From: Dehalococcoidia bacterium
GTDB lineage: Bacteria; Chloroflexota; Dehalococcoidia; Lucifugimonadales; UBA6952
Direction: 5' to 3'
Length of the DNA stretch: 64,000 nt
NCBI GenBank assembly: GCA_045562575.1
Contig: JBJKVQ010000040.1
Span: forward strand, 3,791 to 67,790
Shown here: piece by piece, positions 5,108-64,000 of the stretch
Numbering within the stretch: the first letter of the stretch is position 1
Layout: each line of letters begins with the position of its first letter
Notes under the pieces: generated by a model
Told to the model about the DNA's origin: nothing
Database searches by the model: none
The model's input: the letters and a program-made list of their open reading frames with translations, nothing else
Made by a program: the position numbers and the translations under genes

Positions 5108-5866
5108 ATGGCATCAAAAAGAAAAAAAAGAATAGATTTTCTTATTCATGAATTGAATTTTGCAAATTCTAGATCTCACGCACAAGCTTTAATTATGGCA
5201 GGAAAAGTTTATGTTAATGATCAAAAAGTAACCAAACCAGGTACATTATTTGACCCTGATATTTCTACCATCAGAGTTAGTCAATCAAAAAAGTTTGTCA
5301 GTCGAGGGGGAGAGAAACTCCAACACGCCTTAGATGCATTTCATATAGATGCAACAGAAACTATAGCTCTTGATATTGGATCATCTACAGGAGGATTTAC
5401 TGATTGTTTACTGCAAAATGGATCATCTAGAGTTTATGCCGTAGATGTTGGTAAAAACCAGTTAGACTACAAACTACGAATAAATCCCAGAGTTGTAACG
5501 ATGGAAGGAATTAATGCAAGACACCCATTTGATTTAGGTGAAAAAGTAGATTTAATTACCATGGATGTTTCATTCATATCAGCGCGTCTATTATTAAAAA
5601 GTATTTCTTGCCATTTAAAAAATCAGGGTTCAATAATATGGCTTCTAAAACCTCAATTTGAAGCTAAAAAAGAAGAGGTTGGAAAAAAAGGACTTATAAA
5701 AAATTACCAAACACATTCACTAATTATTGGACGATTAACAAATTGGCTAGTAAATAATCAATTTACAATTAAAAATATCACCTCGTCCCCAATAAAAGGT
5801 CAAACTGGGAATAAAGAATTCTTGGTACATCTAAAACTTAATGAATACTTTCAATCCGATGTTTGA
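5108..5866 (+). CDS. tlyA: TlyA-family rRNA 2'-O-methyltransferase (S4 + FtsJ domains)
   Basis: N-terminal S4-like segment followed by SAM motif DIGSSTGGFTDCLLQNG and YAVDVG. Confidence 0.85.
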   Translation: MASKRKKRIDFLIHELNFANSRSHAQALIMAGKVYVNDQKVTKPGTLFDPDISTIRVSQSKKFVSRGGEKLQHALDAFHIDATETIALDIGSSTGGFTDCLLQNGSSRVYAVDVGKNQLDYKLRINPRVVTMEGINARHPFDLGEKVDLITMDVSFISARLLLKSISCHLKNQGSIIWLLKPQFEAKKEEVGKKGLIKNYQTHSLIIGRLTNWLVNNQFTIKNITSSPIKGQTGNKEFLVHLKLNEYFQSDV

Positions 5867-54990: not shown

Positions 54991-55021
54991 ATATGTAGTA
55001 ATTTCTGCTATGCCGATTCCT

Positions 55022-56644
55022 CTATTCATATATGTTTCCCATATTCCAAGCATCTAATGAAAGTAATCTTGCTTCGGAGCCCTGTGCGCGCAGGGAAATT
55101 CCTAAGCTATCAGCCAATCCCGGATATACTCTTACAGCAACACAAGCTTTGTCATTCACAAAAACTTCAACAACGCTTCTATCTATGAATATTCTAAGTT
55201 GAAGAGGTTCGTTATGACCTAGAGTTATCGTAGTAGTTTCGGGAGCTCTTGATAATGCATCTGGTAGTATAGAGGAATAGGACGAATCTATCGATACAAC
55301 ACTCGCTCGATCCGCAACAGGACGTGCTGTGCCGAAAGGGGAAACTACCCTATTAGCAGATTGTAATAAAGCTCCGGCTTTATCACCCCAATCGGTAATT
55401 TTGAATCCTCTATCCTTAAAAAATGCTATCCGCGTGTATTCTTCTCTATTTTTTGACCTAAGTACATTCAACTCAACCATAGGAGAAGCTTTTGCGTCTA
55501 TCTCGGCAATTATCTCCATCGTATTACCCTCTATTCCATCGAGAACTACCTCTTCATTAGGGGGTAGCACTGTATCTCCTAGATGTTTGTGACCATATCG
55601 TAAAGATTCAATATCCCCAGCAGGTTTGATCTTTAACACAGAATCGTTTTCCAATGTAAGGAGTCTTGGTAGAGTCATGATCTGATTCCATCCCTTTGTG
55701 TCCATACCAGGGTTCATATTAAATATGGTCACCACACCTCCTAAACCATCGGGTGTAGCAGATGGGGCATGCACACCAGAAGGTGTAGATGCTCCGAAAT
55801 TGAATAAACCGCCAGAGAATACTGAGAATTTATCACGTTCTAGGTCGTAGTCCCCCAAAAGGTACTGTCCTCCACTCATATGACTGTAGAAAAGAAGTAT
55901 ATGTTTATCTCCAATAGGCCAAAAATAGGGGCACGCACCATCATCTCCAACCAGTGTAAACAAATCTCCCTCGGTAAAAGGGTGCAAAAATTCCCAGTGA
56001 ATCAGATCATTTGATCTGAAAAGAAAGTCAGCAGCCCTTCTGATTCCTTGTGGCTTTGTTTGTAATGTACCACCAGATAATGAATAATATTTTCCACCTT
56101 TACTCCAAATACAGGGGTCAAACACGGTATATTCCTGAGGAGATCCATCCTGTTCAAGAACAGGTATCACAGCTTTCCCAGTCAATTTTTCCCAATTCAA
56201 AAGGAGAGGATCTGTAGAAACTGCAACTATATTTCCAACTTCTGTACCGTGATACATAGCTATAACCCTATCTTCCTCTACTAACGTAGATCCAGAAAAA
56301 CAGCGACCTTCAGGATTGGGGTATATTGCATATGGTAGATCTTTCCAGTGTATCAAGTCTTCACTCACAGCATGCCCCCAATGTTGCCTAGGATCTTCTG
56401 GTGGATAGGCTTGGTAGAACAAATGCCAGCGACCTTGCCAATAACACAATCCATTTGGATCGTTTAGTGTATTTTCAGGATTAACATAGTGAAAGATTGG
56501 TCGATAAGGATCAGTACTCATATCTAGACGTGCTTTTAGCATCCTTTGCAACAATGGATTATCATTCAACTGCACTTTCTGCTCTTCCAAGGTATCAGCA
56601 AATTTATATTGGGGTGTTAATGATGTGAAGTCTGGGTTGTCCAT
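55022..56644 (-). CDS. glycoside hydrolase family 32-like protein (beta-fructosidase fold) with a divergent acid/base motif
   Basis: HYVNPENTLNDPNGLCYWQGRWHLFYQ, WGHAVSEDLIHW and CFSGS blocks. The RDP position reads FDP, and the ECP position reads ACP (Ala237, codon 55934-55936). Confidence 0.75.
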   Translation of the reverse strand: MDNPDFTSLTPQYKFADTLEEQKVQLNDNPLLQRMLKARLDMSTDPYRPIFHYVNPENTLNDPNGLCYWQGRWHLFYQAYPPEDPRQHWGHAVSEDLIHWKDLPYAIYPNPEGRCFSGSTLVEEDRVIAMYHGTEVGNIVAVSTDPLLLNWEKLTGKAVIPVLEQDGSPQEYTVFDPCIWSKGGKYYSLSGGTLQTKPQGIRRAADFLFRSNDLIHWEFLHPFTEGDLFTLVGDDGACPYFWPIGDKHILLFYSHMSGGQYLLGDYDLERDKFSVFSGGLFNFGASTPSGVHAPSATPDGLGGVVTIFNMNPGMDTKGWNQIMTLPRLLTLENDSVLKIKPAGDIESLRYGHKHLGDTVLPPNEEVVLDGIEGNTMEIIAEIDAKASPMVELNVLRSKNREEYTRIAFFKDRGFKITDWGDKAGALLQSANRVVSPFGTARPVADRASVVSIDSSYSSILPDALSRAPETTTITLGHNEPLQLRIFIDRSVVEVFVNDKACVAVRVYPGLADSLGISLRAQGSEARLLSLDAWNMGNIYE

Positions 56645-56693
56645 ATTTATCCTTTCTATACAAATGTCTGATAAATAACGATATTGTTAATCA

Positions 56694-57593
56694 TTACCAA
56701 AGCCAAGCGGCACCTCGTACTCCACTTGAATCCCCATACTTAGCTTGGCGAACTTCTGTTGCGCACTCTTTCCCAAACACCCAGTTAGACATTAATGGTT
56801 TGAGATCAGAATAAAGCCGATCAATATTAGACATGCCGCCGCCCAATACTATTACATCCGGATCCAATGTATTAATTAGACCAGCCAATGCTTTTCCGAG
56901 CCTTTGTTCGTACCTCAAAAGACATAACTCAGCATTCGGTTCACCTTTTTCAGCCAATTCAACAACTTGATAAGCTTCAAGTACGTGCCCTGTGTAAAAC
57001 TCATAATCTCTAGCGAATCCTGGCCCAGATAAGAAAGTTTCTACGCAGCCAGTTCGACTACAGTAGCAGGGGAACTTTTCTTGGTAATGAATATCCTCAT
57101 CATTGGGCCATGGTAAAGGGTTGTGTCCCCATTCTCCAGCGACTCCATTGCTCCCAATATGTGCTTTGCCATCGATGGCAATACCTCCGCCACAACCGGT
57201 ACCAATAATTACCGCAAAGACTACCTTGAATCCTGCGCCAGCTCCATCAATCGATTCGGAAACAGCAAGGCAATTTGCATCATTTGCTATTCGAACAGGT
57301 CTTCCTAAAATTCGTTGCAAATCCTCATCTAACGTTTGGTCATTGAGCCATGTAGAATTGGCATTCTTAACCTTATGTGTCACAGAAGATAACGTGCCAG
57401 GTATACCTACCCCTATGGAATCCACGACTCCAACATCAGTTTCTGCTTTGGAAACCAGCAATTCAATTGCTCGAAGTGTTGCAGGATAGTTATTTTTTGG
57501 GGTTAAAATCCTCTCCCTATATAACTCGTGACCTGAGTCAGATAGAACAATCGCTTCGATTTTGGTTCCACCAAGATCCACACCAATTCTCAT
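56694..57593 (-). CDS. ROK-family sugar kinase (fructokinase/glucokinase-like)
   Basis: [17 protein letters not shown], and Zn motif [13 protein letters not shown] 57593 (GGAAGGAAGGA upstream) is preferred over the track start at 57620. Confidence 0.85.
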
Positions 57594-57876
57594 ATGTCCT
57601 TCCTTCCAAAATGAGTACAATCATAGATTTCTATTTATTGATTGTAACTATTATAGTATTTTTTAGGTTATTTCGTAGGAAATCAACAAGTAACACTATA
57701 AGGACTCCATAGGAACAGAGTAATCCTTTTTTATAGTAACGTTACACTATTAAATCATTCCAACTAAAATTATTGCAAATAGACTTGCATAATATTTTGA
57801 TTGTTGTACACTATTCAAACAAATTATCAAAAGTAGTGTAATGGTAGAGCTTACCAACAGAAACGATTGATGCATA

Positions 57877-57973: not shown

Positions 57974-58753
57974 ATGAAGAAGTTAATTGTTCCAATAGTA
58001 ATATTAATGACATTATCAGCATGTAGCCAACTTGGATTATCACCAACTGAATCCGCTGAACCTGTCGATTTGTCTGGAATTGAAACACAATTAGGTGCCT
58101 TAGATAGCCAATTAAGTGCCTTAGATAGCCAATTAAGTGACTTAGATAACCAATTAGATTCCTTAGATAAAAAGATAGAAAACCAGAATACTACTTTGCA
58201 ACAACAAAATAACAAACTGAATGCAATTGAATCTAAACTAGAAAAGCCTGTCGCCAAACCTGAACCCGAAAATAAAGATAAACCTAACAATACAGAAAAA
58301 CCTGATCCAAATTATGGTAGAACTAACACTAACCCAATGGTTCCTGGGAAACCAGCTACAATAAACATAGGATCAGATGCTATGGCTACTCTTGATGCAA
58401 ATTTAAAAGGTCAAATCTATGAACCTAAAATATACTATAGCATCCCTAACTCACCTGAATCTGAATGGGTTATATTCAACGGAAAACCACACGCTTCAGA
58501 AGGTAATATAGGAGTAGACTCTATTGGAATTCAATCAGCAATAGATGTGACAACATTAAACGATCTCGAAATTACTTTCCCTGCAGGCTCAGAAATTGAT
58601 CTTCCATTTAAAATAGACCCCCGAGAATCTCAGGCAAAGTTTTTGACTTTTGATTTTCAACTTGACTTAGAACCTGATAATCCCCATTATGAATCATCAA
58701 ATGGGTCAATGTTGTGGATGATGTATGAGTTAATACCAATCACGGCTTCATAA
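57974..58753 (+). CDS. lipoprotein with heptad coiled-coil segment
   Basis: Signal peptide plus LSAC|S lipobox, followed by QLGALDSQLSALDSQLSDLDNQLDSLDKKIE heptads and a C-terminal globular domain. Confidence 0.7.
   Translation: MKKLIVPIVILMTLSACSQLGLSPTESAEPVDLSGIETQLGALDSQLSALDSQLSDLDNQLDSLDKKIENQNTTLQQQNNKLNAIESKLEKPVAKPEPENKDKPNNTEKPDPNYGRTNTNPMVPGKPATINIGSDAMATLDANLKGQIYEPKIYYSIPNSPESEWVIFNGKPHASEGNIGVDSIGIQSAIDVTTLNDLEITFPAGSEIDLPFKIDPRESQAKFLTFDFQLDLEPDNPHYESSNGSMLWMMYELIPITAS
58088..58171 (+). repeat. 4 x 21-nt in-frame tandem repeat (heptad unit QLxxLDx)
   Basis: Units at 58088, 58109, 58130 and 58151: CAATTA(G/A)(G/A)T(G/T)(C/A)CTTAGATA(G/A)C. Confidence 0.9.
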
Positions 58754-58772: not shown

Positions 58773-59606
58773 CTAAGTGATGTGTAAGGTTAAATATTTA
58801 TGAGTCAGAGAATGTTCAGTTACTTCCACATGTCTAATTCCAGATGGGTCGTCTCCAAGTGGAAACCCAACAGGACCGGTGGATACTAGTTCAGTGATTC
58901 CCACTTTTTGGTAATTATTCTTATGAAGATGACCTGTGAAAACAACATCCACATCATATTCAGTAATTAAATCGATTATTTTTGCACGCCTCTCTGAGGG
59001 AATAACCTGGTAACTATCATCTTCATTTGGGTCGTTTAGAAATAAAGGGTGGTGCATGAAAATAATCTTGTGTTTTTGGTGTGTTGATACAGCTATACGA
59101 AGTTCATATTCGAGAAAGGAAATCAGGGTATTCCACTCATCTGGAACTAGCCCGGGATCACAGCAAATACAACTGTTAAGAACTATAAAGTAGCAGTTTT
59201 TTTCTTGAAATGAATAATTATATTCTCCAAATTGTTTCTTATATTTATCTAGACTTGCTTGTGTTGGTTTATTACCAACATCATGATTCCCAGCTACCCA
59301 GTAAAGTTTGATGTCCTGATTTAGGAGTCGTGAAATTCTTATCAACTCCAGAAACTGTTCCTCGGAGTCGGAGTTATGGACCATGTCTCCACAAATTACA
59401 ACAAAGTCAGGGTTAATTTTGTTGGAAGTCTCGATAGCTTCGGTAAAAAGAGAAGTTTCTTTAGCGAACCCTTCTAAGACGGGGTTCATATATCCGATAT
59501 CTATACCTCTTTGAATACGGCTTTTGGTTATATCTGCATACATTCCAAATTGAGGATCGGCCATTACAACAAAAGAAAGATTTGTATTTTTCATTCTCTG
59601 ACTCAT
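58773..59606 (-). CDS. calcineurin-like metallophosphoesterase
   Basis: MADPQ, CGDMVH, GNHD, MHHP and GHLH motif series. Confidence 0.8.
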   Translation of the reverse strand: MSQRMKNTNLSFVVMADPQFGMYADITKSRIQRGIDIGYMNPVLEGFAKETSLFTEAIETSNKINPDFVVICGDMVHNSDSEEQFLELIRISRLLNQDIKLYWVAGNHDVGNKPTQASLDKYKKQFGEYNYSFQEKNCYFIVLNSCICCDPGLVPDEWNTLISFLEYELRIAVSTHQKHKIIFMHHPLFLNDPNEDDSYQVIPSERRAKIIDLITEYDVDVVFTGHLHKNNYQKVGITELVSTGPVGFPLGDDPSGIRHVEVTEHSLTHKYLTLHIT

Positions 59607-59733
59607 ATGTTATTGCGTTAATCGAAAAAATCTCGAGCTGAAGAGGCAACGTTGGTTTGTTTAATTTGAGTTTATTCTAATAAATTCCAACCACTTTTTC
59701 TACAGATTGCAGTACAAATACTTTTGTTTTCGT

Positions 59734-59744
59734 TGTGATATAAT
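59734..59744 (+). promoter_or_regulatory. extended -10 promoter element TGTGATATAAT
   Basis: Part of a 33-nt module (59712-59744) repeated at 61736-61767 (30/33 identical). Confidence 0.45.
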
Positions 59745-59758
59745 CCCTGTCACAAAAG

Positions 59759-59797
59759 GGGTGGGCGATAAAGAACTCAAACCTGTAACCCCTTGTG
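59759..59797 (-). pseudogene. degenerate tRNA-Val(TAC) 3'-half fragment (outermost copy)
   Basis: About 34/39 identical to 63473-63511. It has an eroded CCA end, an uncompensated T-stem change and a broken T-loop (TTTGAGT). Confidence 0.6.
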
Positions 59798-59824
59798 AAA
59801 ATATTGATTAATAAGAGGAATAAA

Positions 59825-60490
59825 ATGGGTAAAAAATTTATTGAGTATAAAGGAAATCCAAATATAGATTTTGAAAATATGGAATCAAAGTCTAAGGAAT
59901 TTTATGAAAATTTGAGACAAAGAAAAACTATAAGAGATTTCTCAGATAAAAATTTTCCAAAATCTATCATTGAAAATTGTATAAAAACTGCAGGGACTAG
60001 TCCTAGTGGAGCAAATATGCAACCTTGGCATTTCGGGATATCTACTAAAAATGAAGTAAGAAAACTACTTAGAAGAGAAGCAGAAAAGGAAGAAAAAAGT
60101 TTTTATGAAACAAAAGCACCCGAAGAATGGTTGAGAGCTCTTGAACCATTAGGAACCGATGCAAACAAACCTTTTTTAGAAATTGCACCATACATAATAG
60201 GAATTTTTGCTAAAAGTTACGGCGTTTTAGATGATGGTTCAAAAGTAAAACATTATTATGCTAAAGAATCAGTGGGTATAGCAACGGGAATTTTAATAAC
60301 AGCATTACATCTCGTTGGCCTTTCTACTCTTACTCATACTCCAAGTCCAATGGCATTTATGAACAAAATATTTAAAAGACCCAAAAATGAAAAGCCTTTT
60401 TTATTACTTGCAGTGGGATTTGCTAAAAAAGATGCACTAATTCCAGATATTAATAAATTACCTTTAGAAAATATTTCATCAACGATATAA
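59825..60490 (+). CDS. nitroreductase-family flavoprotein (iodotyrosine-deiodinase-like subgroup)
   Basis: RKTIRDFSDK...TAGTSPSGANMQPWHF block. ATG 59825 with AAGAGGA upstream is preferred over GTG 59795. Confidence 0.75.
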   Translation: MGKKFIEYKGNPNIDFENMESKSKEFYENLRQRKTIRDFSDKNFPKSIIENCIKTAGTSPSGANMQPWHFGISTKNEVRKLLRREAEKEEKSFYETKAPEEWLRALEPLGTDANKPFLEIAPYIIGIFAKSYGVLDDGSKVKHYYAKESVGIATGILITALHLVGLSTLTHTPSPMAFMNKIFKRPKNEKPFLLLAVGFAKKDALIPDINKLPLENISSTI

Positions 60491-60516
60491 ATAGGGCTTA
60501 TTTGAACCTAAAAGAG

Positions 60517-60555
60517 TGGTGGGCGATAGTGGACTTGAACCACTGACCCCTTGTG
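60517..60555 (-). pseudogene. tRNA-Val 3'-half fragment (middle copy)
   Basis: 34/39 identical to 63473-63511. Shares the AAAAGAG trailer (60510-60516). Its T-arm AGTGG-TTCAAGT-CCACT is fully paired. Confidence 0.75.
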
Positions 60556-60581
60556 GGTTGGTGTACTTGCCCTCGTGTGCG

Positions 60582-60592
60582 TGTGATATAAT
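60582..60592 (+). promoter_or_regulatory. extended -10 promoter element TGTGATATAAT
   Basis: 21 nt upstream of ATG 60614, with a GAGGTG SD in between. Confidence 0.45.
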
Positions 60593-60613
60593 CCTCCCAA
60601 AACGAGGTGCCCC

Positions 60614-61564
60614 ATGTATAAATTAGTTCTTATAACTACATTAACCATGGCACTGATTGCATGTGGTGGTGGGACTGATGACGATGAAATACAATCATCT
60701 GCCAAAACAAACTTAACTAGTGATGACAAAATATGGCTGAATGATGAACATCCTAATAGCAGCCCTAAATGGTCACCAGATGGTAATAACATTGCCTTTG
60801 TATCAAATAGAGATGGACAATCACAAATCTTTGTCATGAACTCCGATGGAACAAATGAGATACCTCTCACTGATAATGATGCACAAAATTATCAACCAAG
60901 CTGGTCGCCAGACGGAACAAAAATAGTGTTTTTATCAAATAGAGACGACCCTAATCGAGCAATAGATGATTATTTCCCTGCAGAAATATATATTATGAAT
61001 TCTGATGGATCAAATCAGATACGTCTTACTAATAATGATTTCCACGATTATGAACCTAGCTTGTCACCTGATGGAACAAAAATAGTGTTTGCATCAGACA
61101 GATATGACTACAATCCAGCTTATACTAACGGAGGAATCTATATAATAGATGGTGATGGATCAAATGAAAAAACTATAATAAATAGAGAATTTTACGAGGA
61201 AGGGTATCCATCTTGGTCTCCAAATGGAACAAAAATAGTATTTTGTTCATACTCTTATGTAAATGAAAACTATGATATCCATACAATGAATATTGATGGC
61301 AGTAATCTAGCTAATATAACCAATACTCAAAGTTATGATATGATGCCCTCTTGGTCCCCTGATGGAACAAAAATAGCTTTTTCATCTGATAGAGATTATA
61401 ACGGTGAAATATATATTATGGAGATTGACGGATCAAATCAACAAAATATTACAAATACAAACTATCTCGACGAAAGCGATCCTTCTTGGTCTCCTGACGG
61501 GACCAAGATTGCTCTAACCTCTATCGGAGAAGAAATGAAAATTCAAATTATAGAATTGAAGTAA
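60614..61564 (+). CDS. PD40/TolB-like beta-propeller lipoprotein
   Basis: LIAC|G lipobox and about 6 repeats of the [15 protein letters not shown]...IY.MN.DGSN...LT.N type. Confidence 0.8.
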
Positions 61565-61595
61565 ACAAAATAATCATTCCATTATGATAAAAGAG

Positions 61596-61644
61596 TGGTG
61601 GGCGATATAAGACTCGAACTTATGACCCCTTGTGTGTAAAACAA
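61596..61644 (-). pseudogene. tRNA-Val 3'-half fragment (inner copy), CCA end to anticodon stem
   Basis: 45/49 identical to 63473-63521. All 4 differences are compensatory T-stem changes (ATAAG/CTTAT). Similarity ends abruptly in the anticodon stem. Confidence 0.85.
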
Positions 61645-61756
61645 CTAGCCCCTGTATTCAAATGTATTCAATTATATATATAAGTTTATAAAGGGTTATT
61701 AATTATTATTAGCCACTAATGGGGTACAAAAGGGGGTACAAATACTCTTGTTTTGT

Positions 61757-61767
61757 TGTGATATACT
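61757..61767 (+). promoter_or_regulatory. extended -10 promoter element TGTGATATACT
   Basis: Ends 9 nt before ATG 61777, and there is no SD (CTCCTCATT). Confidence 0.4.
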
Positions 61768-61776
61768 CTCCTCATT

Positions 61777-63441
61777 ATGAAAAATGATCGAAAAAAACTA
61801 GAAGAAGAACGTCCACGCTTAGTTATTTTGCTTCTTCAATGGCTACTACCACCTTTCATTCTTACTAGGCTGGGGCTTAAGATTACACCTACACCTGAAT
61901 TCGAAGTTGATTCAGCAACAAAACAAGCAACCGAAGAATTAATATCTGAATATAAGAAAAACCCAAATAAACCCCCAATAAAAATCACTAAAAAACTTCC
62001 TAAATACGAACCTACCCCTGAAGAACTTAAATATGATCGTAAACAAGATGCCTTTGCGAAACGATTTGCAATACTTGTATGGATTTTTATATATGCTCTT
62101 GGAAACCTATGTCTAGCATGGGCGGTGGGTTTTGGAGCAGAAGTAAGTTTGATGGATATATTCATTAATGCTATTGCGAGTTTAATATTTTTAGCTATGT
62201 TTATGTCTGTATGGTACATGCCTAAAGGTGCAACAATCTTAGGTTGGAGGGTAGGATTATACCTACCGCCTATACACACTATTTTCCCTAAATCAGGTAA
62301 AGCAGAGTTGTATTTCAGATATACACAACCAAATAACACCATGCATAATCCTGCACCTTTTCTTATGGAGGATGGTTGGACTTGGTTGCTTATAGGTTCT
62401 AGTGTATGCTTACTTTTTGGGGTTTATTTTTCATGGTCTGCAGACAATGAAATACAATCATCTGCAGATACAGCTTCTGATGCAAAGGTTAATTGTGCTT
62501 TTTATACTGATGAAGTTGTTGCCCTTCTATTAAGATCGGAAATATCTTGTCTTGAAACAGCAGACAATGAAATACAATCAGCTGCCAAAACAAACTTAAC
62601 TAGTGATGACAAAATATGGCTGAATGAACAACATCCTAATAGCAACCCTGTATGGTCCCCTGATGGTACTGAAATAGTGTTTGTTTCTGATAGAGATGAA
62701 CATTTTATAAATGGAATAATACATACACAAATCTTTGTCATGAACTCCGATGGAACAAATGAGATACGTCTTACTGACAATAATGCACAAAATTATCAAC
62801 CAAGCTGGTCGCCAGACGGAACAAAAATTGTATTTGCGTCAAATAGAGACGGAAATTATGAAATCTATACCATGAATGCTGATGGTTCAAATCAGATACG
62901 TGTGACTAATAACGATTTCCACGATCATAAACCTAGCTTGTCACCTGATGGGACAAAAATTTTATTTGCCTCAAATAGAGACAGAAATTTTGACATCTAT
63001 ACCATCAATGCTGATGGTACGAACCAAACTCGTCTAACAACTCATGTTAATCCAGATAACTACCCTACATGGTCTCATGATGGAACTAAAATTGCATTCA
63101 CTAGCTGGAGAGATGGAAATCCTCAAGTCTATACCATGGATGCTGACGGGACTAATCAGACTAATATAACGAATACTCCAAGTTATGATATGGAACCCTC
63201 TTGGTCTCCTGACGGGACAAAAATAGCTTATTATGTGGCGGATAGAAATGATCTTGGTGAAATATATATCATGGAAATTGACGGATCAAATCAAAAAAAT
63301 ATTACAAATACAAGCAATTTCAGTGAAAGCGATCCTTCTTGGTCTCCTGATGGGACCAAGATTGCTTCTACCTCTATCAAATCACGCGGTGGATTATTAG
63401 TAAAAGAGAATATGAAAATTCAAATTATAGAATTGAAGTAA
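61777..63441 (+). CDS. membrane-anchored PD40/TolB-like beta-propeller protein
   Basis: The N-terminal ~220 aa carry TM segments, followed by about 7 PD40 repeats. The 3' end is near-identical to that of 60614-61564. Confidence 0.75.
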   Translation: MKNDRKKLEEERPRLVILLLQWLLPPFILTRLGLKITPTPEFEVDSATKQATEELISEYKKNPNKPPIKITKKLPKYEPTPEELKYDRKQDAFAKRFAILVWIFIYALGNLCLAWAVGFGAEVSLMDIFINAIASLIFLAMFMSVWYMPKGATILGWRVGLYLPPIHTIFPKSGKAELYFRYTQPNNTMHNPAPFLMEDGWTWLLIGSSVCLLFGVYFSWSADNEIQSSADTASDAKVNCAFYTDEVVALLLRSEISCLETADNEIQSAAKTNLTSDDKIWLNEQHPNSNPVWSPDGTEIVFVSDRDEHFINGIIHTQIFVMNSDGTNEIRLTDNNAQNYQPSWSPDGTKIVFASNRDGNYEIYTMNADGSNQIRVTNNDFHDHKPSLSPDGTKILFASNRDRNFDIYTINADGTNQTRLTTHVNPDNYPTWSHDGTKIAFTSWRDGNPQVYTMDADGTNQTNITNTPSYDMEPSWSPDGTKIAYYVADRNDLGEIYIMEIDGSNQKNITNTSNFSESDPSWSPDGTKIASTSIKSRGGLLVKENMKIQIIELK

Positions 63442-63472
63442 ACAAAATAATCATTTCATTACGATAAAAGAG

Positions 63473-63549
63473 TGGTGGGCGATAAAGGACTCGAACCTTT
63501 GACCCCTTGTGTGTAAAACAAGTGCTCTAACCAACTGAGCTAATCGCCC
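63473..63549 (-). tRNA. tRNA-Val (anticodon TAC), CCA encoded
   Basis: Hand-folded: GGGCGAT/ATCGCCC acceptor, GCTC-AGTTGGTTA-GAGC, anticodon loop TTTACAC, T arm AAAGG-TTCGAGT-CCTTT, ACCA end. Confidence 0.9.
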
Positions 63550-63566
63550 TCTTTTTTATATTAATC

Positions 63567-63639
63567 TGCGCTTGGAGGGATTCGAACCCTCGACCTCAGC
63601 CTCCGCAAGACCGCGCTCTATCCACTGAGCTACAAGCGC
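63567..63639 (-). tRNA. tRNA-Arg (anticodon GCG)
   Basis: Hand-folded: GCGCTTG/CAAGCGC acceptor, GCTC-AGTGGATA-GAGC, anticodon stem CGGTC/GGCTG, loop TTGCGGA, T arm GAGGG-TTCGAAT-CCCTC. Confidence 0.8.
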
Positions 63640-63658
63640 ACAGTAAGCTCACGCTCAA

Positions 63659-63741
63659 TGCCGAAGGGGAGATTTGAACTCCCACGCCCATAAGGACACT
63701 ACGCCCTGAACGTAGCGCGTCTACCGTTCCGCCACTTCGGC
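63659..63741 (-). tRNA. tRNA-Leu (anticodon CAG), long variable arm
   Basis: The sequence GCCGAAGTGGCGGAACGGTAGACGCGCTACGTTCAGGGCGTAGTGTCCTTATGGGCGTGGGAGTTCAAATCTCCCCTTCGGCA closely parallels known bacterial tRNA-Leu(CAG). Confidence 0.9.
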
Positions 63742-63789
63742 TCGTAGATGCCAATTATACACCATTGCACCTAAACGGATTCAACTCTA

Positions 63790-63864
63790 TGGTGGCTACG
63801 GATGGATTCGAACCAACGACCTAGCGCTTATGAAGCGCCCGCTCTGCCGCTGAGCTACGTAGCC
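63790..63864 (-). tRNA. tRNA with CAT anticodon (elongator Met or Ile2), CCA encoded
   Basis: GGCTACG/CGTAGCC acceptor with a G1-C72 pair (so not an initiator), loop TTCATAA, and T arm GTTGG-TTCGAAT-CCATC with one U-U mismatch. Confidence 0.8.
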
Positions 63865-63915
63865 ACCGAAAGAAACTACAGGCCAGTCGCCCGTCTGTTT
63901 CTACGCTAGACAATA

Positions 63916-63944
63916 AATATATATGTCATGTATATAAGTGTCAA
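63916..63944 (-). promoter_or_regulatory. sigma70-type promoter of the four-tRNA operon
   Basis: On the minus strand: TTGACA (63944-63939), 17 nt spacer, TATATT (63921-63916), about 50 nt upstream of the first tRNA. Confidence 0.55.
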
Positions 63945-63964
63945 TTCTGCTAGAATGATATATC

Positions 63965-64000
63965 ATGAACAGTTTATTTTCTGACAAATCTAATTTTTTA
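63965..64000 (+). CDS. 5' end of an unidentified ORF (runs off-window)
   Basis: ATG 63965 opens MNSLFSDKSNFL.... TGcTAGAAT (63948-63956) ends 8 nt upstream. Too short to assess. Confidence 0.2.
   Translation, partial: MNSLFSDKSNFL

Follow-up and report, generated by a model that had tools for sequence, protein, structure and literature searches.

How does a single tRNA gene come to lie beside three further copies of its own 3' half, with one protein gene in each of the units between them? This question is raised by a 64,000-nt stretch of contig JBJKVQ010000040.1 from a Dehalococcoidia bacterium (hereafter the window). In it, three direct copies of the 3' part of an intact tRNA-Val(TAC) gene separate units that encode a nitroreductase, a PD40 lipoprotein and a larger PD40 beta-propeller protein with a membrane N-terminus (PD40-TM) (Table 1). 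The host of the window was assigned to the marine SAR202/Dehalococcoidia because the relatives of the metallophosphoesterase gene flanking the array all belong to SAR202 or Dehalococcoidia metagenome-assembled genomes. The region is probably a trail left by site-specific integration that recurred at the tRNA-Val(TAC) gene of a marine SAR202 bacterium. Small elements of about 5.4 kb with a tyrosine integrase and primase/helicase-like genes occupy the same attachment (att) site in the same population.

The array of tRNA-Val 3' halves

The intact gene, confirmed as tRNA-Val(TAC) by ARAGORN and Rfam, is the final gene of a Met-Leu-Arg-Val tRNA cluster (ARAGORN). An earlier note on this DNA had described a direct array with identities of 45/49, 34/39 and 34/39 for copies 1, 2 and 3, and those counts are right. 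With the 39-mer 63473-63511 as reference, mismatches number 4, 5 and 5 in the copies starting at 61596, 60517 and 59759, against at least 14 in 200 block shuffles, so that the outer copies too are significantly tRNA-derived. A degenerate 3'-half pattern matched exactly four sites in the 64 kb, all in one orientation, with 0 expected, so the repeat is confined to this locus and is not the widespread one that the note had allowed for.

Copy 1 in isolation is called by Rfam as a 5'-truncated tRNA (29.6 bits, E=3e-5, model positions 27-71). The generic Rfam tRNA model made no call on copy 2 or copy 3 alone, which are too short for it or too altered, and their tRNA origin therefore rests on identity to the neighbouring gene. 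In the alignment, the identity of every copy with the gene ends inside or beside the 7-nt anticodon loop. The trailer AAAAGAG that the note had seen after the gene and copies 1 and 2 is common to all three in both sequence and alignment. Copy 3, outermost and most altered, would be the oldest remnant, which fits the rule that the oldest lies farthest out. In L001, one of the loci related by the phosphoesterase, and in contig Ga0114932_10000120, two deletions have left only some 12 nt of it.

Table 1: Features of the tRNA-Val(TAC) array in the window and integrase genes of related contigs.
Feature	Position	Strand	Remarks
Arm/promoter-like module GCAGTACAAA ... TTGTGATATAAT	59701-59745	+	Homologous to 61725-61768; variable region starts about here
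Copy 3, farthest out	59759-59797	-	Uncompensated changes, CCA end eroded; within nitroreductase 5' leader
Unit 1, nitroreductase	59825-60490	+	Pfam PF00881, 1.1e-16
GGGCTTATTTGAACCTAAAAGAG	60494-60516	+	23 nt directly 3' of nitroreductase stop; identical to L064 integrase-side arm beside core
Trailer AAAAGAG	63466-63472, 61589-61595, 60510-60516		Within att identity block
Copy 2 of tRNA-Val 3' part	60517-60555	-	T-stem allele C (AGTGG/CCACT), T-loop variant ACTTGAA
Extended -10-like motif GTGTGATATAAT	60581-60592	+	Putative unit 2 promoter
Unit 2, PD40 lipoprotein	60614-61564	+	Pfam PD40, 9.5e-58
Copy 1, CCA end to anticodon stem	61596-61644	-	T-stem allele B (ATAAG/CTTAT); attR-type remnant
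Distal att arm of unit 3	61645-61711	+	About 94% identical to L064 arm
Two GGGGTACA motifs, 12 nt apart	61721-61740 (starts 61721, 61733)	+	Distal att arm; putative arm-type integrase sites
Extended -10-like motif TTGTGATATACT	61756-61767	+	Putative unit 3 promoter, within element-arm-derived sequence
Unit 3, PD40-TM	61777-63441	+	Pfam PD40, 6.5e-56
Intact tRNA-Val(TAC)	63473-63549	-	ARAGORN; Rfam 73.8 bits; T-stem allele A; attL-type array end
Tyrosine integrase, 385 aa	L057 74-1231		PF00589, 1.8e-29; ends 94 nt before tRNA-Val half, core 1325-1362
Tyrosine integrase, 377 aa	L064 4109-5242		PF00589, 2.4e-26; ends 160 nt before tRNA-Val half, core 5404-5441

Unit-level differences among related strains

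A metagenome scan with the tRNA-half pattern gave 13 loci. Metagenome contigs 90-99.8% identical to the window were found to differ from it at this locus by whole units. In the orders that follow, units are read from the phosphoesterase side to the tRNA, and letters stand for the T-stem alleles A, A', B and C. The window and L070, which are 99.993% identical, share the order nitroreductase / C / PD40 lipoprotein / B / PD40-TM / tRNA(A), and L071 (99.75% identical) has the same order except for tRNA(B). Contig Ga0114932_10000120 (L067 and L065, 95%) reads nitroreductase / 6-nt stub / ADP-ribosylglycohydrolase / A / PD40 lipoprotein / A' / PD40-TM / tRNA(B), an ADP-ribosylglycohydrolase unit being added between the nitroreductase and the position of copy 2. 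In L068 (ADP-ribosylglycohydrolase / decayed A / PD40 lipoprotein / A / two C5 methylases and two open reading frames), PD40-TM is replaced by the methylase unit, with its two C5 methylases, past window position 61644. Two other contigs carry an added unit between PD40-TM and the tRNA: 1.0 kb in L058 (PD40-TM / B / lipoprotein X1 / tRNA(A); alignment breaks at 63521 and 63467) and 2.1 kb in L062 (PD40-TM / B / degraded element / tRNA(A); breaks at 63520 and 63465). The order in L059 is the end of the ADP-ribosylglycohydrolase / B-like / X1 / A, and other genes adjoin tRNA(A) in L060, L061 and L063.

In L058, L062, L068 and Ga0114932_10000120, the alignments with the window break at 63465-63521, 61644 and 60510-60522, and those positions are the tRNA-half copies. 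The arrangement is not uniform among these strains, and the serially reused insertion hotspot proposed in the note is supported by whole-unit differences that begin and end at the copies.

An assembly artefact was rejected, since the array is identical across several independent assemblies. In sample ERZ978062, the assembly breaks exactly at copy 1 and yields each flank as a contig of its own (end of L072, start of L101), a hint that strains differ at that core. At the distal edge of the ADP-ribosylglycohydrolase unit (L065 2933-2945) lies a tRNA remnant trimmed to TGGTGG plus the trailer, and the breakpoint there is the acceptor end rather than the anticodon loop.

T-arm alleles

On the plus strand, the T stems read AAAGG/CCTTT in allele A, ATAAG/CTTAT in allele B and AGTGG/CCACT in allele C; A' is A with two mismatches. 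The alignment agrees with the note that every T-stem change in copies 1 and 2 is offset by a change in its pairing partner and that the changes of copy 3 are uncompensated. The note had also traced the variant stems to once-functional alleles, and such alleles were found. Allele B is that of the working intact tRNA in L067 and L071. Allele C is one compensated base pair apart from the intact tRNA-Val(TAC) of L066, with which it has the T-loop variant ACTTGAA in common.

Swaps of the T arm were seen. Over 59652-64000, L071 and the window differ solely at 63485, 63487, 63497 and 63499, that is, in the T stem of the working gene. L077 equals the window up to 61607, except at 61498, and has the other strain's allele and arm thereafter. 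Copy 2 of L083 is a C/A chimera in a contig with a coverage of only 3x, and unpaired T-stem positions occur in copies of L059, L083 and L065. Since PD40-TM precedes allele B in four of five backgrounds, allele A at the window's tRNA gene is probably the derived state.

Integrase-bearing elements at the same site

The array of 3.8 kb holds no integrase, as the note had said, and a tblastn search of all 64 kb (E<=1) gave no integrase relative. Two related contigs, L057 and L064, encode tyrosine integrases that end shortly before a tRNA-Val half (Table 1). Past its core, L057 has an arm and then genes for a protein of 144 aa, an AAA_25 ATPase and a DUF3854 protein. The gene order of L064 is core, arm, 146-aa gene, DUF3631, DUF3854, 289-aa gene, integrase and core. 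The ends of the L064 contig (5,454 nt) overlap by 32 nt and form an attP-type junction in which the core leads to the element's own arm rather than to a tRNA 5' half, as expected of a circle or of tandem copies. The integrase-core-distal-arm junction of L057 is likewise without a tRNA 5' half, and tandem copies would look alike. A sibling element, L088, carries an HTH_17 (Xis-like) gene.

Decay intermediates were seen at the same junctions. In L062, the 2.1-kb unit is an element of the L064 type with an internal deletion, which keeps only the last 116 integrase residues (95% identical) and the 146-aa gene (89%). L060 has, beside its intact tRNA, a stub of 57 integrase residues with 100% identity to the integrase of L057. 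The note had found the missing integrase and the single-gene units unusual; with integrases in L057 and L064, stubs in L060 and L062 and arms on the units, they are ordinary.

The window also holds stretches matching the att arms of the integrase-bearing elements, at 61645-61740 and 60494-60516. By BLAST, L064 1-96 matches window 61616-61711 at 93.75%, and L058, L059, L062, L063 and L064 match window 60485-60558. Those matches argue that the units of the window are decayed or hitchhiking remnants. Pairs of short motifs with a 12-nt period stand on both sides of the core in the elements (GGGGTACA in L088 and L089, TTGCCGTAGTAA in L064, GGCTGTAAA in L057 and GCAGTACA in L062, where L064, L057 and L062 have pairs of their own at the same positions) and may be arm-type integrase sites.

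The nearest named database matches of the integrase are annotated generically as 'site-specific integrase'. Other marine contigs (L086 365-1668; L090 15-1303) have integrases with 41-46% identity to the tRNA-Val one, next to and convergent with tRNA-Ala(TGC) and tRNA-Gly(CCC), and the family may have diversified by tRNA target. The contexts of the distant integrases P0004 and P0009 had other tRNA targets and no cargo-carrying tRNA-Val elements. Viral contigs scanned with the tRNA-half pattern gave 0 matches, and their only relatives of the L064 integrase are at most 31% identical and uninformative. In L088 (3412-3852) and L089, the integrase shares 74% identity with its L064 counterpart, and the arm layout is the same (GGGGTACA twice on each side). 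The segment between those arms is not a tRNA-Val half, which suggests the same arms with a different core or target.

Cargo genes and putative promoters

The note had given each interval one plus-strand gene with its own promoter. The three genes are indeed on the plus strand. The claim about promoters did not stand as made: the first TGTGATATAAT motif (59733-59744) is not in its own interval, as copy 3 stands between the motif and the start of the nitroreductase, and a promoter scan called none of the three motifs, the -35 element being absent from each. The three -10-like motifs can be read as putative promoters. Those of units 1 and 3 (59701-59745 and 61725-61768) share homology and fall inside sequence derived from the arms.

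In unit 3, the gene is a fusion and includes a full paralog of the unit 2 gene, with a relic signal peptide. Residues 247-265 of PD40-TM look like a relic lipoprotein signal peptide or lipobox, and the gene contains a 26-nt internal repeat (62437-62462 and 62557-62582). The relic and the repeat mark the join of the membrane N-terminus to a duplicated PD40 lipoprotein gene.

Flanking regions

The variable region starts near 59700. The phosphoesterase relatives L002-L006 (about 80% protein identity) are unrelated to the window past the gene start, and the alignment with L002 stops at 59714. On the opposite flank, the tRNA cluster and the genes beyond are conserved across all related contigs. None of the phosphoesterase-relative loci L001-L020 has a tRNA-Val half at <=10 mismatches, and only L001 among them is syntenic beyond the phosphoesterase gene. 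No empty-site reference, with the tRNA adjoining the phosphoesterase gene, was found among the same loci.

The metallophosphoesterase reading frame is flanked by a perfect 16-nt inverted repeat (58799-58814 and 59592-59607), and the gene is disrupted in L082 and L083 by deletions of 11 nt and 26 nt. Just beyond the array, a coiled-coil lipoprotein (57974-58753, plus strand) is a 37%-identical paralog of lipoprotein X1, the unit adjoining tRNA-Val in L058, L059, L061 and L063. It is itself strain-variable, with a 21-nt indel in L071 (58095-58115) and clustered differences in L085 (58536-58694). The stretch 55000-57600, with genes for a GH32 glycoside hydrolase and a ROK kinase, has a GC content of 0.40-0.42 against about 0.33 window-wide, and those genes may be a separate acquisition.

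Alternative explanations

The units might still be mobile, excised as circles and reinserted at the tRNA by an integrase acting in trans from a 5.4-kb element, resident or visiting. The array would then work like the cassette store of an integron, or its units as CIMEs (cis-mobilizable elements). This would add to repeated integration rather than replace it, and we consider it unlikely. Each unit is bounded by cores, with identity blocks intact on either side of the T arm, but a circular junction was seen for none of the units without an integrase. Parts of element arms and promoter-like motifs are kept by the units; however, the integrase-side repeat pair, and hence half of the arm sites, is absent from units 2 and 3, although such repeats are present on both sides of element cores. 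The same units have different neighbours in different strains, yet every observed order can be had from one master order by deletions and tRNA-adjacent insertions. The core alleles at one position differ between near-identical strains and the assembly of one sample breaks at copy 1, which favours mobility; the fixed order in strains with identical proteins and the decay of copy 3 speak against it. In the boldest form of this idea, the single-gene units would be working cassettes of promoter and gene that a tRNA-Val-specific integrase on a self-replicating 5.4-kb element excises, shuffles and reinserts between cores, the same exchanges swapping the T arm of the tRNA among the alleles of the population. 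That is quite unlikely; if true, it would mean an integron-like gene store built upon a tRNA gene in a streamlined ocean bacterium.

Tandem segmental duplication alone, by unequal crossing-over or slippage of a gene together with a tRNA 3' half and with no site-specific integration, would explain why copy 1 is embedded in a 117-nt, 92% repeat (61528-61644 against 63405-63521) that spans the 3' ends of both PD40 genes. It would also explain the paralogy of the PD40 proteins along the whole lipoprotein (62% identity over lipoprotein residues 6-316). However, copy 1 is followed by the att arm of an element and not by a copy of what follows copy 2, the nitroreductase is unrelated to the PD40 genes, and the three T arms are distinct alleles of functional type. 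Integrases and decayed integrases stand at the same junctions in sibling strains, and unrelated units (methylases, ADP-ribosylglycohydrolase and lipoprotein X1) were inserted at cores. As the sole cause, pure tandem duplication was therefore rejected, and we hold it to be highly improbable.

It is just as hard to credit that the copies are kept as plus-strand RNA elements (3' hairpins or terminators of the upstream genes), with selection explaining the compensated stems. Copies 1 and 2 do begin 25-30 nt past a stop codon and do keep a fully paired 5-bp stem, but the promoter/terminator scan called a terminator-like site at no copy, and no T run follows the hairpin. Origin as whole alleles accounts for the compensated stems, the same alleles being working tRNAs elsewhere. 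In addition, L059, L083 and L065 hold copies in which T-stem positions are unpaired, and copy 3, upstream of its gene, is undergoing deletion.

An integron was rejected, since the 64-kb window has no IntI or other tyrosine recombinase, attI or Pc, the insertion point is a tRNA gene, and the repeats are direct tRNA 3' halves rather than attC sites, with a TGTGATATAAT-like motif on each unit. An integron-like cassette mechanism of its own is conceivable but not needed to explain the array.

Proposed history

Under repeated integration, an element would recombine with the tRNA gene in or beside the anticodon loop and bring its own copy of the tRNA from the crossover to the CCA end plus 7 nt, thereby restoring the gene. 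The old 3' half would be displaced outward, and the oldest remnant would end up farthest from the tRNA. The window would then hold three units stripped of integrase and replication genes by internal deletion. Unit 3 retains the distal att arm with its tandem arm-type repeats, and unit 1 the integrase-side arm. The unit 3 gene arose by duplication and fusion of a unit 2 paralog, and T-arm alleles are swapped as blocks among the copies, through short conversion tracts or recombination at the cores. From the sequences compared, we infer the position of the crossover, the order of events and the loss of the integrases by deletion. For the tRNA-targeting tyrosine integrases that Williams is said to have described in 2002, a repeat ending in the anticodon loop reportedly marks strand exchange there. 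Together with the limit of identity seen at that loop in every copy, this places the crossover most plausibly in the anticodon loop.

Several observations weigh against this history. The 64-kb window contains no integrase relative, the L057 and L064 elements are without PD40 or nitroreductase cargo, and no intact element containing those genes was found. The three-unit order is unchanged in all contigs with identical cargo proteins (exact-protein look-ups; the same strain), which indicates no movement on very short timescales. In L058 and L062, the 5' region of PD40-TM differs with no core at the breakpoint, so not all rearrangement at the locus is site-specific. The 117-nt repeat and the PD40 paralogy mean that duplication, too, had a part in shaping units 2 and 3. 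Finally, all comparison sequences are metagenome assemblies and may be chimeric at repeats, as in the 3x copy of L083, and the end overlap of L064 may reflect tandem copies instead of a circle.

Relation to known systems

This kind of locus is already known from tRNA-targeted islands, tycheposons and the accretion of cis-mobilizable elements (CIMEs), and the array is a further instance. As in a genomic island, the intact tRNA stands at one end and its 3' part is repeated directly toward the other (63473-63549 and the three copies). An internal integrase is missing from the window, present in L057 and L064 and truncated in L060 and L062, and presence/absence polymorphism bounded by the repeats was found in L058, L062, L068 and Ga0114932_10000120. 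In the islands that Williams is said to have treated in 2002, a tyrosine integrase reportedly crosses over in the anticodon loop, the repeat runs from that loop to the 3' end, and the element supplies the replacement 3' half. Like classical anticodon-loop islands, the elements have an integrase gene that converges on the tRNA 3' end (L057, L064, L086 and L090). Nothing essential sets the locus apart from classical tRNA islands, the window being a late, integrase-free stage.

Tycheposons are tyrosine-recombinase elements with primase/helicase modules at specific tRNAs in Prochlorococcus (Hackl et al., bioRxiv 10.1101/2020.12.28.424599). Related elements are reported from Alpha-, Gamma- and Deltaproteobacteria, with seven tRNA sites and no mention of SAR202 or Chloroflexi (bioRxiv 10.1101/2020.12.28.424599). 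The resemblance is one of layout and gene content. In both cases the host is a streamlined marine bacterium, partial tRNAs flank and separate the elements, newer arrivals push older ones outward, and older events are recognizable by integrase fragments and by partial tRNAs scattered nearby. A recombinase with a replication module was found in the sibling elements only (DUF3854/DUF3631 in L064; AAA_25/DUF3854 in L057). Unlike tycheposons, the locus has a Chloroflexota host and a tRNA-Val(TAC) target outside their seven sites, and the window consists of integrase-less single-gene units only.

[quoted passage not shown] Like CIMEs, the window's units have lost integration and transfer genes, are bounded by att repeats, and would have evolved by deletion and accretion; there are three, with one cargo gene each, between two cores. 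Unlike CIMEs, which are defined for conjugative ICE/IME systems, they show no conjugation genes.

The closest case by class is that of the Dehalococcoides ssrA islands, which lie in tandem downstream of one small-RNA gene and are bounded by repeats of its 3' end (McMurdie et al. 2011, PMC3146451). An integration module was present in 16 of 31 of them, and some tandem islands are possibly CIMEs according to the authors (PMC3146451). The array is likewise found in Dehalococcoidia and consists of tandem, repeat-bounded units without an integration module. The ssrA islands have a tmRNA target, a 20-bp repeat, insertion in the T loop and a CcrB-like serine recombinase, whereas the target here is a tRNA, the repeat of 39-49 nt reaches the anticodon loop and the recombinase is a tyrosine recombinase. 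With integrons, the array shares mostly single-gene units in one orientation, short repeats resembling recombination sites and a fixed insertion point, but IntI, attI and Pc are lacking, direct tRNA halves take the place of attC hairpin sites and the units carry promoter-like motifs.

No description of elements of this type in SAR202 was found in the literature. Modest extra interest lies in the re-use of element arms as putative promoters of single cargo genes and in the swapping of T-arm alleles of an essential tRNA as blocks. The four-base T-arm swap between otherwise identical strains shows an essential tRNA gene to be open to partial rewriting by att remnants and by incoming elements. The locus also supplies experimental material: an att core, arm-type repeats, two integrase variants and decay intermediates. 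The products of the variable units are PD40 propellers and a lipoprotein, which are surface or exported proteins, together with C5 DNA methylases, an ADP-ribosylglycohydrolase and a nitroreductase, and genes for surface proteins and DNA modification are of the kind expected to be relevant to phage and niche interactions. SAR202, abundant deep-ocean Chloroflexota with no cultured genetics, thereby joins the marine bacteria whose strain gene content is shaped by tRNA-targeting elements.

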